Shown one piece after another: positions 12,372 to 37,257 of a stretch of DNA of 64,000 nt. The notes under the pieces are model-generated. The model was not told where the DNA came from. It did no database searches and saw only the letters and a list, made by a program, of their open reading frames with translations. This DNA is from an uncultured Bacilli bacterium (GTDB lineage: Bacteria > Bacillota_I > Bacilli_A > RF39 > UBA660). The position numbers and the translations under genes are program-made. Position 1 is the first letter of the stretch, and each line of letters starts with the position of its first letter. The stretch covers positions 19,549 to 83,548 of the forward strand of contig CANRPB010000001.1 of NCBI GenBank assembly GCA_947632415.1. Direction: 5' to 3'.

Positions 12372-12920
12372 CTAGATTGGTTGCCATGTTCTAATGACAT
12401 ACAAGAAAGGGTGAGTAGTTATACTCACCCTTTTGTTTACTTTATTGAGATCTAATTGCACTTCATTAGGATCTATTCTCCTTAGTTTTTTATGTAATTT
12501 ATCATATCCTTTAAATAAGTCTGTACTATCTTTAGGGTATGAAATCCAATCTATTTTGCTTATAAAGATTGAAGATACTTTCGTAAACTCATTATTTAAA
12601 ACTAATTCTGTATCGGTTTTAAATTTATTAGGTATATGAAATGAATATATGTCATAACAATCACCGTCTATTTCTTCGTAGTAATTTGAATAAGCGTATT
12701 CATTGTTGTTATAGAATGTTTTAAAATTTTTCGGTGCTAAATTCTTGAATACTACGAATATTTTATTACCCCAAGCTGGTTTGTTTGTATCACCTATGTA
12801 TACACCTATAAATCTACTATGAAGTATTAAGTTGAAATCTTTCTTTTCTTTGCATACGATTGGAAATATATAGAATGCCATTAGATAACGAGTATCAGAT
12901 CTCTTCAGTTCCATCTCCAT
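12372..12920 (-). CDS. Hypothetical protein
   Basis: 182-aa ORF ending in TAG (cta at 12372-12374). The alternative start M14 (12881) would remove the 26-nt overlap with the upstream gene. Confidence 0.55.
   Translation of the reverse strand: MEMELKRSDTRYLMAFYIFPIVCKEKKDFNLILHSRFIGVYIGDTNKPAWGNKIFVVFKNLAPKNFKTFYNNNEYAYSNYYEEIDGDCYDIYSFHIPNKFKTDTELVLNNEFTKVSSIFISKIDWISYPKDSTDLFKGYDKLHKKLRRIDPNEVQLDLNKVNKRVSITTHPFLYVIRTWQPI
12406..12438. terminator. Bidirectional intrinsic terminator at the convergent junction
   Basis: 12-bp perfect stem AAAGGGTGAGTA/TACTCACCCTTT with loop GTTA, followed by TGTTT on the + strand. It lies 50 nt past the TGA of the giant gene. On the - strand it is followed by TTTCTTGT. 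Confidence 0.7.
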
Positions 12921-13872
12921 CGTAATATGCTTTTGGATGGTCCCAATTTCCTGTCTGATAATGGTATGATAATTCTGTTAATGTATTGATAATAAGGTCT
13001 TTGCGACTATCTAACTCAATTTCATTAAACATGTTAAATACTCTCACTTCATAGCTATCATTCGTTTGAATTGCAACTATATATGCTTCGCAATCATAAT
13101 CTGATATATCTATACCTAAGTCAGTCATATACCAAGTAATTGCGAGCAAGTAATAACATATCTGCCGATAGTAATCAAACTCTTCAACAGAATGCTTAAA
13201 GTTATATACGTCACTGGTTGTCTTTAAGTCAATCAGTGTTATTTTTTTATTTATATGGTCGAATATACATCTATCAAGTAATGACTTACACGGTGCTATC
13301 CAATTATTTACTTTAAATTTCCAGTTAATGTGGAATTCATTATGAGATTCCACTCCAGGTATATCTGTTAGCAATTCCTTTGCTTTCTTATGGTTATATA
13401 TATTATCCTTAATAGTATTTAATATATTCAAATCGGCAAAGCTAATTGCTTTTCTATTCTCTTTGTTATGTTTTAAAGCTTCTATATAGTCAGCATACTT
13501 CTCACATAGCTCTGTCGCTTCTTTTAAGGCGATTTCAGACGTTTTCTGGTTACTATATGAACTACGGTATGCCTGAAGCTTTTTCGTGTCTTCTATGAGC
13601 TCTAATGAGCTCGCATAAGCTTCACAGAAATCCTTTTGTTGTTTTACTTTAGGTACTTCATAATCAAGTATAATATAATCATGCCAGAATTCATCTGGTT
13701 GCAGTATATACTCATGTATCATAGTACCTCGTTCAAGTTGAGGTAGTTTTAATCCTTCCTCTTTCCCGTCTATCATATCCTTATAATACCGTGGTCCTTT
13801 CTTTAAGAACCACCCGATTGCTGAGTTTGATATTCGCGTGTTATCTTCATAATACGGAATCTCTATTTTCAT
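12895..13872 (-). CDS. PD-(D/E)XK (RecB/Cas4-like) exonuclease
   Basis: Motifs ERGTMIHEY, DHINKKITLIDLKTT (D...DxK) and YYRQICYY (QxxxY). 325 aa. TGA stop. Confidence 0.7.
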   Translation of the reverse strand: MKIEIPYYEDNTRISNSAIGWFLKKGPRYYKDMIDGKEEGLKLPQLERGTMIHEYILQPDEFWHDYIILDYEVPKVKQQKDFCEAYASSLELIEDTKKLQAYRSSYSNQKTSEIALKEATELCEKYADYIEALKHNKENRKAISFADLNILNTIKDNIYNHKKAKELLTDIPGVESHNEFHINWKFKVNNWIAPCKSLLDRCIFDHINKKITLIDLKTTSDVYNFKHSVEEFDYYRQICYYLLAITWYMTDLGIDISDYDCEAYIVAIQTNDSYEVRVFNMFNEIELDSRKDLIINTLTELSYHYQTGNWDHPKAYYDGDGTEEI

Positions 13873-13994
13873 GCTGCTAAATATAAATCGGTTTCAACTT
13901 CCATGTTTGTATTCCATGGGATCTCGTCTTCTATATCCTGACGGATATGTTTAGACATCTTGCATATGACTATCATTAGAAATAAAATCATGAT

Positions 13995-14816
13995 TTAAAA
14001 TATAGATTCTTCTTCATTCTCGTTTTTCTCTTTTATTTCTTTAGTAGAAATATTCATATCTTTAGCTAATTGAGCTAAAGATATGTCTTCAAAGAGAACA
14101 ACTTCATCTAATAATGCAGAAATATTATCAAATGATTTTACTTTCATATATTCGTTAATGAAGTTCACAACTTCATCTATATTCTTAACTCCCTTATCTT
14201 CTGCCATATAGCGTACAAATACCGAGTTAGAATTAGCTTCATACTGTTTGAAATAACGAACACGTGAGCATCTATCGAAGAAGTTTTCGTCTATCTTTTC
14301 TGCTCTATTACAAGTCATTAATACAAGTTTCTTTGCTGTTGACTCTACTCCATCTAAGAATCCTAATAGATCCTTAGTTTCCCACCAATAATCGTTCTTC
14401 TCAATCTCATCAAACATGATTACTACAGGAGTAGTAAAGTTTTTGAAGAACGCACTTAGTTTATCAGCAGGATAGTCAGTTGCAACAACAATAATAGGTA
14501 GATTACTTTCTAAGGCAATACGTTTAGAGAGCATTGTTTTGCCTGTACCTTTAGTACCAGCAAGTAATACACCTGTTGTTTGGTTAGAACTTTCAGAATT
14601 GAAATAAGTAAGCACACGGTTAATAAAGTTATTATCCTCATCTAGCTTATACAGTTTCTTTGGCATATTCAAATCACCATTTTCTACTAGATAAGATTTT
14701 CCTTCCATACGATTGTACTTCAGATCGTATACTTTACCTTTAATAAGTTCATATGCTAATCCTTCTAACTTCGGTTTAACTGTGATCTCATTACCTACTT
14801 TAATAAATTCTGCCAT
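13995..14816 (-). CDS. AAA+ ATPase
   Basis: Walker A GTKGTGKT, Walker B VVIMFDEIE, sensor-1-like LMTCN. Confidence 0.8.
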   Translation of the reverse strand: MAEFIKVGNEITVKPKLEGLAYELIKGKVYDLKYNRMEGKSYLVENGDLNMPKKLYKLDEDNNFINRVLTYFNSESSNQTTGVLLAGTKGTGKTMLSKRIALESNLPIIVVATDYPADKLSAFFKNFTTPVVIMFDEIEKNDYWWETKDLLGFLDGVESTAKKLVLMTCNRAEKIDENFFDRCSRVRYFKQYEANSNSVFVRYMAEDKGVKNIDEVVNFINEYMKVKSFDNISALLDEVVLFEDISLAQLAKDMNISTKEIKEKNENEEESIF

Positions 14817-14866
14817 AATTTCTGTTTTTATGTTTTTAGTTTGTCGATTAACTCATCGACTTGTTT

Positions 14867-15073
14867 CTACGTATGTACAACATAGAACGCTGTTTTAGGT
14901 TCATGTAAGTACAAATAATAGTTAAATAACTTTTCGCGTAAAGGCCAAGCCTCATTAGGAAAGCCTTTACACTCAATAATAAACCCATTACCTACAAAGT
15001 CAGGTAAATAGGTCATTGGACGATGTTTCTTATTGTGAAAAGTAAAAGCTGGAAGTAGCTCGTATCTATGCAT
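14867..15073 (-). CDS. Small PD-(D/E)XK endonuclease (TnsA-N/resolvase-like). The true N-terminus is probably upstream.
   Basis: YLPDF...IIECKG (PD...ExK). The frame stays open upstream to 15190 and encodes FKSKLEAYTYKKLKEA, but with no ATG/GTG/TTG. TAG stop. Confidence 0.55.
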   Translation of the reverse strand: MHRYELLPAFTFHNKKHRPMTYLPDFVGNGFIIECKGFPNEAWPLREKLFNYYLYLHEPKTAFYVVHT

Positions 15074-36137: not shown

Positions 36138-36282
36138 AGGTAATATAGGATATAGATTAATATACCTGCTGCTATTGCAATAATCACATCATAACCTTTT
36201 GGGTTGTTACTATTATTTGCTAAGAATGTGATCATGTTTACAATGCCATATTCTATTATGTTTTAAGTAATGATACACTAGC

Positions 36283-36567
36283 TTATTCAGCTAGTATATC
36301 ATTTATTAGACTATTTTTAATTTCTTTTTGCTTCTGTTGATGATAGTTTTTGGCTTTAATACTTTGAATTCTCGTCTTCAACTTAGCCAGATCATCAACA
36401 GTTAGTCCTTCAGCATACTGTCTGAAATCGGCGAGGTATTTATCCTTTCGGTAGCCGGTTTCTAACTGTGCTTTTTGCCACAGTTCAAGTGCATCATCGA
36501 TATTTGGTCTCTGGTTGCATGATGCAAGCATTAGGCTGATTAAGCCTAAGAATAAAATCTTTTTCAT
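36283..36567 (-). CDS. Lipoprotein
   Basis: Signal peptide with lipobox: MKKILFLGLISLMLASC. Confidence 0.7.
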   Translation of the reverse strand: MKKILFLGLISLMLASCNQRPNIDDALELWQKAQLETGYRKDKYLADFRQYAEGLTVDDLAKLKTRIQSIKAKNYHQQKQKEIKNSLINDILAE

Positions 36568-36719
36568 TTTAGGTATAATTTATAGTAAATTGTTGATAAT
36601 GTTACTAATAGAATTACGATTATAAATCGCATAGGCAATGTTAAAATAGGGTAAATAGCTAATACTACAAGTAAGTAGATTATTATCGCAGCTATTATTG
36701 CTTTACTTGCTTTCTTCAT
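36564..36719 (-). CDS. Small two-TM membrane protein (51 aa)
   Basis: MKKASKAIIAAIIIYLLVVLAIYPILTLPMRFIIVILLVTLSTIYYKLYLK, read codon by codon. Its TGA overlaps the lipoprotein ATG as ATGA. Confidence 0.5.
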   Translation of the reverse strand: MKKASKAIIAAIIIYLLVVLAIYPILTLPMRFIIVILLVTLSTIYYKLYLK

Positions 36720-36819
36720 ACTTCTTAAGTTTATTGATTAAACGTTAATTGGTTCGGCCCTCTGGCTAGGTCTTTTATCTTGCTAGGTGCGACGGCCATT
36801 TATTGAGAACAGGTGAGGC

Positions 36820-37257
36820 TTATTCAGCCTCGCCCATTCTTTGCAGAAAATCTGCTCTGTCGATAAAATCGGCAAAGCAGCTGGTCTGCCGTGCAAACGC
36901 CAGTTGTCCAGCGTCTATTTTTACGGCGTTGTCGTAAAAATATGTTGCACTACGCGTAGCGTCTGCATACACATCTGACTCGGAACGAGACAGACCTTGT
37001 ATCGTACGGTACGTACGAAGTGTACCGTTTCTGTCCAACTGGACAGGAACAATTTGTGCTGACCATTTGGTCAATTGCAACTGATCGCCTTCAGCAATCT
37101 CTCCGTCTCTGTAAAAGAGACGTGAAATCTCTGTGACGCCAGTCTCGAGATTCTTGAATCTGGCCATGAAGCCAGTTTTACGTTCAGTCTCAGTAAGTTC
37201 TACGCACTCAGCTGATATTGTCTCTCTCTTGAGAGACCAGAAAATGTCTTTAGCCAT
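36820..37257 (-). CDS. Orphan protein on a GC-rich island
   Basis: Start taken at MAKDIFW (ATG 37257). The track start at 37365 is TTG. 36841-36900 is 30/60 GC, versus about one third in the flanks. Confidence 0.6.
   Translation of the reverse strand: MAKDIFWSLKRETISAECVELTETERKTGFMARFKNLETGVTEISRLFYRDGEIAEGDQLQLTKWSAQIVPVQLDRNGTLRTYRTIQGLSRSESDVYADATRSATYFYDNAVKIDAGQLAFARQTSCFADFIDRADFLQRMGEAE

Follow-up and report, generated by a model that had tools for sequence, protein, structure and literature searches.

The 64,000-nucleotide stretch of contig CANRPB010000001.1 analysed here (hereafter the window) belongs, judged by sequence comparison, to a gut crAss-like phage in which the late genes use TAG as a glutamine codon and the replication module is compatible with the standard code, with a single exception, the gene of a predicted Holliday-junction resolvase that can be translated in full only when TAG is read through. 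At least one in-frame TAG is found in this gene in nearly all recoded relatives of the phage. It is likely that the late genes are translated with genetic code 15 (TAG = Gln), that the early and replication genes are readable by the unmodified host ribosome, and that production of the resolvase is gated by TAG suppression. As to whether the resolvase TAG was selected as a gate or is merely tolerated, the odds are roughly even, with a lean towards selection because the TAG is retained.

A predicted resolvase gene that requires TAG read-through

An earlier note on this DNA, made without database searches, listed five minus-strand open reading frames (ORFs) that end at TAG (CTA on the plus strand at 12372, 14867, 23064, 30485 and 30855) and held that no minus-strand gene needs TAG read-through. 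All five triplets are present at these positions, but only four of them terminate genes. The ORF 14867..15073 (68 amino acids, aa) is a fragment of a 123-aa gene with TAG at codons 3 and 111, the sole minus-strand gene in the window that needs TAG read-through. From the ATG at 15197-15199, the N-terminus of the product reads MT#NKKVRNATKIEVDGILFKSKLEAYTYKKLKEANIDAEYE-MHRYE... (# stands for TAG), and beyond the 14867 TAG the protein continues as KQVDELIDKLKT up to the TAA at 14828. When 80 IMG/VR loci were collected with the neighbouring exonuclease as the query, about 77 were found to encode the resolvase, and all ~77 have Q at the position of the 14867 TAG (...HNQKEVDELIKKLKK), followed by the conserved tail KxVDELIxxLK. 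Judging from this alignment, the 14867 TAG is a Gln codon, not a stop. A frame that runs on through TAG into conserved sequence in related genomes is one of the outcomes by which the earlier note wished its reading to be refuted, and for 14867 this outcome is observed.

The gene product is predicted to be a Holliday-junction resolvase of the T7 endonuclease I-like/DUF1064 type. It matches PHROG 190 ‘Holliday junction resolvase' (E=1.4e-14) and, over residues 8-95, Pfam DUF1064 (46.9 bits, with a cut-off of 24.7), and scores 24.6 bits against Pfam Phage_endo_I, under the cut-off of 29.1. A search of PDB with the single resolvase sequence gave no matches and a profile search was needed: the profile of 11 diverse members of the family matches T7 endonuclease I (1M0D, E=0.005), with RSKLE aligned with FRSGLE, and YLPDF...ECKG aligned with YTPDF...ETKG. 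The residues E25, P66, D67, E76 and K78 are invariant in the 11 members and align, as the motifs E(25), PD(66-67) and E-x-K(76-78), with the catalytic residues of T7 endonuclease I, although the overall similarity to T7 endonuclease I is weak. The resolvase domain with its catalytic Glu begins at residues 9-25, and the stretch from the codon-3 TAG to Met42 lacks any ATG, GTG or TTG. Because the catalytic Glu (E25) is located upstream of Met42, the first start available in the standard code, translation with that code would yield no active enzyme.

Distribution of sense and stop TAG codons

Megablast search with the region 12330-37300 of the window retrieved 17 phage records, all of them crAss-like, the best match being cr53_1 (NC_055889; Suoliviridae, Loutivirinae), with 79% nucleotide identity over 51% of the query; cr113_1 and cr52_1 are among the other matches, and the replication module is syntenic. 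By these similarities, the window represents a crAss-like phage of the order Crassvirales, family Suoliviridae (delta); for the proteins tested, the identity to IMG/VR relatives reaches about 84% (aa) at most. The gene order in the replication module is identical to that in cr53_1, namely, exonuclease, AAA ATPase or MRE11-like nuclease, Holliday-junction resolvase, primase, helicase, ScpB-like protein, DNA polymerase and sigma factor, the latter followed in the window by many small genes, and on this ground the minus-strand region 12372-37365 is identified as the replication, recombination and early module.

The plus strand is fragmented in the standard code, and reading through TAG lifts the summed length of the ORFs of at least 100 aa from 5,170 to 13,040 aa. 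The terL gene, the gene syntenic with the portal gene and the two giant ORFs are open only with TAG read-through, in agreement with what the earlier note held for the long plus-strand genes. The non-overlapping set of plus-strand genes contains 181 in-frame TAGs in 12,402 codons, compared with 207 CAA and 139 CAG, and the stops of these genes are limited to TAA (26) and TGA (7). On the minus strand, the 34 supported genes contain two in-frame TAGs in 6,548 codons, both in the resolvase gene, compared with about 96 expected at the late-gene rate (P about 1e-38); off-frame TAGs are abundant in the same genes (344). Thus, 33 of the 34 minus-strand genes lack an internal TAG. Two kinds of further candidates for minus-strand sense TAGs were rejected: the remaining TAG-containing ORFs of at least 40 aa are off-frame shadows, lie in a conserved ORF-free region or represent C-terminal extensions, and the N-terminal extension of 22253..23038 through TAG is not conserved.

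Comparison with relatives indicates that TAG in the late genes is read as Gln, that is, according to genetic code 15. Opposite the 44 TAGs of the giant ORF 7511..12355, the relatives have Q in 13 cases, a stop codon (presumably TAG) in 9, K in 6 and E in 6, and the residues aligned with the TAGs of the late block from 42518 onward are mostly Q, K or E, with Q being the commonest.

The boundary between the two codes, as far as the gene sequences tell, is set gene by gene and not by strand, because the minus-strand resolvase gene needs read-through and because the plus-strand block 37769-41847, upstream of the candidate suppressor tRNA gene, is poor in TAG. In this block, TAG occurs in the genes 37951..38163 (three), 39212..39604 (one) and 41144..41674 (two, aligned with K and Q in cr53_1), and the cr53_1 counterpart of the block has three TAGs in 15 genes. 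TAG-free genes also exist on the late strand, for example, 58331..59317 (328 aa) and 54476..55177.

Two plus-strand genes merit separate mention. The gene 37951-38163, at the very start of the plus-strand block, is a small Cys-rich 70-aa ORF with three in-frame TAGs, and its homologue with in-frame stops in cr53_1 (locus L162, 2344-2529) is not annotated there. In the late block, the gene 53050-53841 encodes an HNH-type endonuclease as a 249-aa standard-code ORF that ends at TAG, to which code 15 adds 13 codons. It was considered as a case of a late gene with a TAG stop and rejected, being unrelated to the cr53_1 gene with which it was compared (17477..18229); it looks like a recently acquired mobile gene that keeps its original stop.

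Retention of TAG in the resolvase gene

Altogether, 84 loci with the resolvase were examined, 79 of which are recoded, in the sense that the convergent giant ORF contains in-frame TAGs. The resolvase gene has at least one TAG in 78 of these 79 loci (several positions and over 10 sequence contexts are represented) and in none of the four standard-code Suoliviridae genomes (cr55_1, cr1_1, cr50_1 and cr118_1); in cr55_1, Q is aligned with the codon-3 TAG of the window. The TAG is usually located 3-12 codons past the ATG, in an otherwise poorly conserved basic tail (MKR#R, MRRKK#L, MKN#I, M[EGK]QKKK#G, MKSV#N, MKPKNKKK#T, MT#N), and a few lineages have it elsewhere (T#LDG in L076, YTY#KL in cr6_1; L046 and L047 have an additional one, KLK#AN), HT#KQ being a further context. 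The first 281 codons of terL in the window, taken as a benchmark, contain seven TAG sites. These are matched in 0-62% of 80 relatives (mean about 22%), where a match means that the tblastn translation has a stop codon in that column, presumably TAG. In the window, cr53_1, cr6_1 and cr115_1 alike, no gene of the module apart from that of the resolvase has an internal TAG; the remaining in-frame TAGs annotated in the RefSeq modules of the latter three genomes fall within the last few codons and are probably real stops. The near-universal retention of TAG in the resolvase gene among the recoded relatives suggests that the gate is selected. A wider N-terminal gate, with TAG over-represented among the initial 12-20 codons of late genes at large, was considered as well and rejected (P = 0.04-0.12 in the window, P = 0.33-0.48 in cr53_1).

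TAG stops in the replication block

The other four TAGs listed in the earlier note are genuine stops, and three of them have the backing of relatives, in which the orthologues of the genes ending at 23064, 30485 and 30855 stop at the same residue. All 67 orthologues of the 23064 gene terminate with TAA, and the TAG of the window is therefore likely to be a recent TAA-to-TAG change at the true stop position. The 80 orthologues of the 30485 gene share the final ...LPF residue; TAA follows it in 54 of them and TAG in 26, and the sequences beyond are unrelated. All 81 orthologues of the 30855 gene stop at TAG, in three sequence contexts. This TAG lies within a 14-nucleotide overlap with the start of the next gene (ATGGTAATACATAGT; ATG GTA ATA CAT AGT), where TAA in place of TAG would change a Ser codon that is conserved in the overlapping gene. 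For the gene ending at 12372, the comparison is limited to six loci, with most relatives carrying unrelated genes after the exonuclease; the homologues in these six relatives (48% identity) end about 21 aa earlier, with TAA TAA, and the tail unique to this genome looks like a stop-loss extension that happens to reach a TAG. TAG terminates 4 of 34 genes in the window, about 5 of 33 in cr6_1, 2 of 30 in cr115_1 and 4 of 29 in the standard-code cr55_1, so that, by these counts, TAG stops are not depleted in the replication block.

The extension of 30855..31313 was given in the earlier note as 12 codons, up to the TAA at 30819-30821, and this is borne out. The extensions are not conserved, however: all four vary in sequence and length except where they overlap the next gene. 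The 30855 extension is 9, 12 or more than 20 codons long depending on the clade, and the conserved peptide downstream of this TAG is the N-terminus of the overlapping gene. Unusually near backup stops were considered and rejected, given that the extensions of 2-12 codons do not differ from the median of 9 codons to the next TAA or TGA behind genes that end in TAA or TGA. With the extensions being unconserved and no shorter than the controls, there is no evidence at the sequence level that they are functional.

The candidate suppressor tRNA

The only tRNA(CUA) gene of the window, detected by ARAGORN at 41931-42008, is non-canonical. It has an odd D arm and no standard T arm; acceptor stem, CCA end and anticodon arm (loop CUCUAAA) are in place, and the Rfam tRNA model RF00005 does not match it even at E<=1. 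It is homologous to the 91-nucleotide tRNA(CUA) with a long variable arm that is found in L176, L221 and L229, relative to which it has lost 15 nucleotides in the T arm; most positions of the acceptor and anticodon stems differ between the two, and yet the stems pair, by virtue of compensatory changes. By its sequence, this may be either a functional non-canonical tRNA or a decaying copy. An exact-pattern search of IMG/VR for this tRNA variant returned no matches.

The position of the gene is the same as in cr53_1, after the same small ORF (41722..41847) and a hairpin. The small conserved ORF, MKKFNITIDLTKD...WQRIKSWF, comprises 41 aa (41722-41929 region; L162, 6481-6663), and the hairpin directly before the tRNA gene is ACGTGGTG...CACCACGT in the window and ACGTGGA...TCCACGT in cr53_1; together, these may represent a processing or regulatory signal for the code-switch tRNA. 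A tRNA(CUA) gene is located no more than 1.5 kb upstream of terL, often together with tRNA-Met, in about 36 of the 47 relatives scanned, and at least four unrelated tRNA(CUA) types, of 73-91 nucleotides, occupy the same position upstream of terL (loci L171-L250), which suggests that the suppressor has been replaced repeatedly at this position. The degenerate tRNA(CUA) may also bear on the recoded crAss-like genomes that apparently lack a suppressor, because standard tRNA models can miss such a tRNA.

Possible role of the resolvase TAG

In the likely scenario, built in part on the literature on recoded phages, the early genes would be translated by the host machinery, and the expression of tRNA(CUA) would then open the late genes. 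The resolvase gene would be co-transcribed with the replication genes and translated only once the suppressor tRNA is active, so that the branch-cutting nuclease would be withheld until the replication intermediates need resolving for packaging. Late-only production of a resolvase is plausible given the substrates of junction-resolving nucleases, the branched intermediates of replication and recombination, on which they act ahead of packaging. Once the switch is made, tails of 2-12 residues would be added to the four early proteins that end at TAG, and these would be by-products rather than functional isoforms. A more specific version of this scenario, in which the amber codon within the first dozen codons is a gene-specific translational timer in the early operon that couples junction resolution to the onset of packaging, is a tentative proposition, with chances slightly short of even. 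Several observations weigh against gated production of the resolvase and the division of codes behind it. The labels ‘early' and ‘late' are assigned from gene content and the literature; the relatives are not phylogenetically independent; about 35-40 kb of the phage genome lies outside the window; six sense TAGs are found in plus-strand genes upstream of the tRNA gene; and the only tRNA(CUA) of the window, without a normal T arm and missed by the Rfam model, may be non-functional. Furthermore, recoded cr273_1 has no TAG in its resolvase gene, the TAG density of the window gene (2 in 123 codons) equals the late-gene average, and much of the observed pattern could result if the gene were expressed late for unrelated reasons and simply tolerated TAG.

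The last three points bring up the most serious of the competing explanations, which is nevertheless rather unlikely, that the resolvase is made late anyway, from a late promoter of its own or a long-lived mRNA, and TAGs drift into its gene in the absence of a selected gate. The density of 16 TAGs per 1000 codons, compared with 14.6 per 1000 in the late genes, the TAG-free resolvase gene of cr273_1 and the variation of the TAG position among lineages (the N-terminal tail, T#LDG, YTY#KL, KLK#AN, HT#KQ) are all compatible with such drift. It is harder to reconcile with drift that a TAG in the first 3-12 codons is kept in nearly all recoded relatives despite the unconserved surroundings, when single terL sites are kept in only about 22% of the relatives, and that no other gene of the module has gained a TAG in the four genomes examined. 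The N-terminal position could alternatively imply attenuation, whereby incomplete suppression keeps the dose of a potentially toxic nuclease low throughout the infection: structure-specific nucleases are commonly dose-sensitive, and termination at codons 3-12 costs little translation. Such attenuation is improbable, given that late ORFs with up to 44 TAGs are viable only under nearly complete suppression, at which a single TAG attenuates little, and that before the tRNA is present, the effect of the TAG is all-or-none.

The extensions of the TAG-terminated early genes raise the question of functional late isoforms, for example, a 30855 protein that is switched off or re-targeted after the code switch. 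Isoforms of dual-coded genes have been proposed (10.1101/2022.06.29.495998), and the TAG ending of all 81 orthologues of 30855..31313, with a similar 12-codon extension shared by the main clade, fits this idea. However, the 30855 TAG and its extension sit in the start of the next gene, where TAA would disturb the conserved Ser codon, the extensions in other clades (9 or more than 20 codons) are unrelated in sequence, the stops of the 23064 and 30485 genes alternate between TAA and TAG among relatives, and the extension lengths fit the control distribution, all of which makes functional isoforms quite improbable. Least credible of all is a strict partition by strand, with all five TAGs stopping minus-strand genes, none of these genes needing read-through and the code boundary coinciding with the strand switch. 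The five triplets are indeed TAGs in frame with standard-code ORFs, 33 of the 34 minus-strand genes have no internal TAG, and in the literature, the code switch usually follows the strand switch (10.1101/2022.06.29.495998). Nevertheless, the ORF that ends at 14867 is a fragment, with Q in the relatives and the next 12 residues conserved; the conserved domain reaches 33 residues upstream of the ATG of this fragment, across another TAG; and the plus-strand block at 37.8-41.8 kb is poor in TAG. Thus, the general pattern outlined in the earlier note, with TAG as sense in late genes and stop in early ones and a phage tRNA(CUA), holds and is already published, and the strict strand partition does not.

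Layout of the window and other RNA elements

The features discussed above are collected in Table 1. Both giant plus-strand ORFs (2..12355) are convergent with the replication block.

Table 1. Coordinates of the principal features of the window
Feature	Coordinates	Strand	Remarks
Giant late ORF	2..7507	+	33 in-frame TAGs; runs off the window
Second giant late ORF	7511..12355	+	44 in-frame TAGs
Replication, recombination and early block	12372..37365	-	34 supported genes; standard-code compatible; stops TAA 23, TGA 7, TAG 4
182-aa gene	12372..12920	-	TAG stop 12372-12374; read-through adds 11 codons, including a second TAG, to TAA 12339-12341
Holliday-junction-resolvase-like nuclease (predicted), 123 aa	14828..15199	-	TAGs 15191-15193 (codon 3) and 14867-14869 (codon 111); TAA 14828-14830
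175-aa gene	23064..23591	-	TAG stop 23064-23066; TAA two codons on, at 23058-23060
127-aa gene	30485..30868	-	TAG stop 30485-30487; potential 9-codon extension to TAA 30458-30460
152-aa gene	30855..31313	-	TAG stop 30855-30857; potential 12-codon extension to TAA 30819-30821
TAG-poor block upstream of tRNA(CUA)	37769..41847	+	6 sense TAGs, spread over three genes
Candidate amber suppressor tRNA(CUA), encoded CCA	41931..42008	+	ARAGORN; head of the late block
tRNA-Met(CAU), directly upstream of terL	42428..42500	+	ARAGORN; Rfam 61.9 bits; same layout in many relatives
Late structural and packaging block	42518..64000	+	TAG = sense; ends in TAA/TGA only
terL	42518..45661	+	20 in-frame TAGs
Gene after terL, syntenic with the cr53_1 portal gene	45664..48180	+	13 in-frame TAGs

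Within the replication block, the region 24975-27116 extends for 2.1 kb without an ORF in any frame, and each of the three stops occurs in it at random density. About 60-70 relatives conserve the nucleotide sequence, at 73-89% identity, which is equal to or above that of the flanking genes, with counterparts at L001 16130-18254, L163 7012-9091, L164 5646-7850 and L166 6473-8949; in four RefSeq Suoliviridae genomes, the region is an unannotated gap. An Rfam search of the ORF-free 2.1 kb found no family at E<=1. RNAalifold analysis of the minus strand yields numerous helices, with compensatory changes in 37 of 167 pairs, compared with 0-4 in slid controls. However, with the same pipeline, the fraction of compensatory pairs is 21-24% in the ORF-free region and 10-16% in the neighbouring coding DNA, and because the flanking coding DNA reaches such values, the covariation is regarded as suggestive only. 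The modelled pairing thus suggests that the region might encode a large structured RNA, the alternative being a replication origin or another DNA element.

Several other RNA elements are located on the minus strand. A RAGATH-9 RNA (33272-33432) is recognized by Rfam with 140.5 bits, compared with the gathering score of 75.2; at the matching place in cr114_1 and cr115_1, RefSeq annotates ‘transfer-messenger RNA, SsrA', and ARAGORN finds no transfer-messenger RNA in the window. A Hatchet self-cleaving ribozyme (34806-34904; 83.1 bits, gathering score 51) lies in an intergenic gap of the early block. Two odd tRNA-like genes are predicted by ARAGORN, neither of which is reported by the Rfam tRNA model: a ‘Pro(agg)' at 21922-21994, just upstream of the gene for DNA polymerase (20070..21929), and another, without an assigned anticodon, at 31799-31873. 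The tRNAs upstream of the polymerase gene in the relatives are annotated as His(atg), Val, Arg or Ser.

Relationship to known systems and implications

TAG recoding in crAss-like phages was reportedly noticed by Ivanova in 2014. Its restriction to late genes, along with suppressor tRNAs, has been described by Yutin et al. in 2021 (PMC7886860), and Borges et al. (10.1101/2021.08.26.457843) reported the same recoding, with a regulatory hypothesis and a map that shows a standard-code replication module in crAss-like phages. Metaproteomics of crAss-like phages by Peters et al. (10.1101/2022.01.06.475225) found TAG read as Q, and according to a review (PMC10136315), one of the phages in that work is a member of Suoliviridae; a 2026 preprint describes the same layout in another genus of Crassvirales. 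The phage in the window shares with the code-15 crAss-like phages the TAGs in terL, portal, tail and giant virion genes, the standard-code replication module, a phage-encoded candidate tRNA(CUA) and a host group with the standard code, without any essential difference. The general pattern, then, is already published, and the window contributes one more case to it but no new principle.

Pfennig et al. (Mgcod; 10.1101/2022.06.29.495998) described ‘dual-coded' early genes, the products of which differ by short extensions, a ‘soft switch' and, at the 5' end of the recoded strand, a Sup-CTA tRNA. Likewise, the early proteins in the window are nearly the same in codes 11 and 15, and the tRNA heads the late strand, but the description by Mgcod is by block or strand, whereas the window has one code-15-only gene in the dual-coded block and a TAG-poor part of the late strand. 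The exceptional status of the resolvase gene was not found to be mentioned in the papers searched. An analogous case among recoded phages is the group I intron endonuclease of the TGA-recoded Agate phages, which is inserted in an early gene and carries the reassigned stop codon (10.1101/2021.08.26.457843). Both are nucleases of the early region with a reassigned stop codon, and for the Agate enzyme, it has been proposed that it is not made until late; however, Agate phages belong to a different group and recode a different codon (TGA = Trp), and their enzyme is a mobile homing endonuclease, whereas that in the window is a core recombination enzyme. In phage T4, I-TevI/II/III, segB and the gene 49 product, endonuclease VII, are produced only late from early or middle transcripts (PMC2988022, citing Barth et al. 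1988). The logic is the same, with a DNA-cutting enzyme that is encoded in an early transcription unit and translated only late (in the window, this is a proposal), and T4 endonuclease VII likewise is a Holliday-junction resolvase that is needed before packaging. The mechanisms differ in that an RNA hairpin hides the ribosome-binding site in T4, whereas the proposed block in the window is an amber codon that needs the phage suppressor tRNA.

For such genomes, annotation with a single code gives wrong proteins either way: code 11 cuts the resolvase to a 68-aa fragment without the catalytic Glu, and code 15 reads the early genes past TAGs near the C-terminus that probably are their real stops. 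The RefSeq entries of the recoded relatives L001 (NC_055889), L163 (NC_055894) and L164 (NC_055898) apparently use code 15 throughout. In cr53_1, the RefSeq versions of gp31, gp37, gp25, gp23 and gp21 read through TAGs in the last few codons that are probably real stops, and gp38 joins two genes across TAG TAG (codons 209-210), the counterparts of which in the window are separate (24345..24974 and 23776..24336).

A single gene amid early genes, carrying one or two TAGs and conserved throughout the family, the resolvase gene presents a compact, testable case of translation timed by recoding. If the amber codon indeed serves as a timer, it would amount to selected code switching of a single gene, beyond the block-wise recoding of late genes that has been described already.

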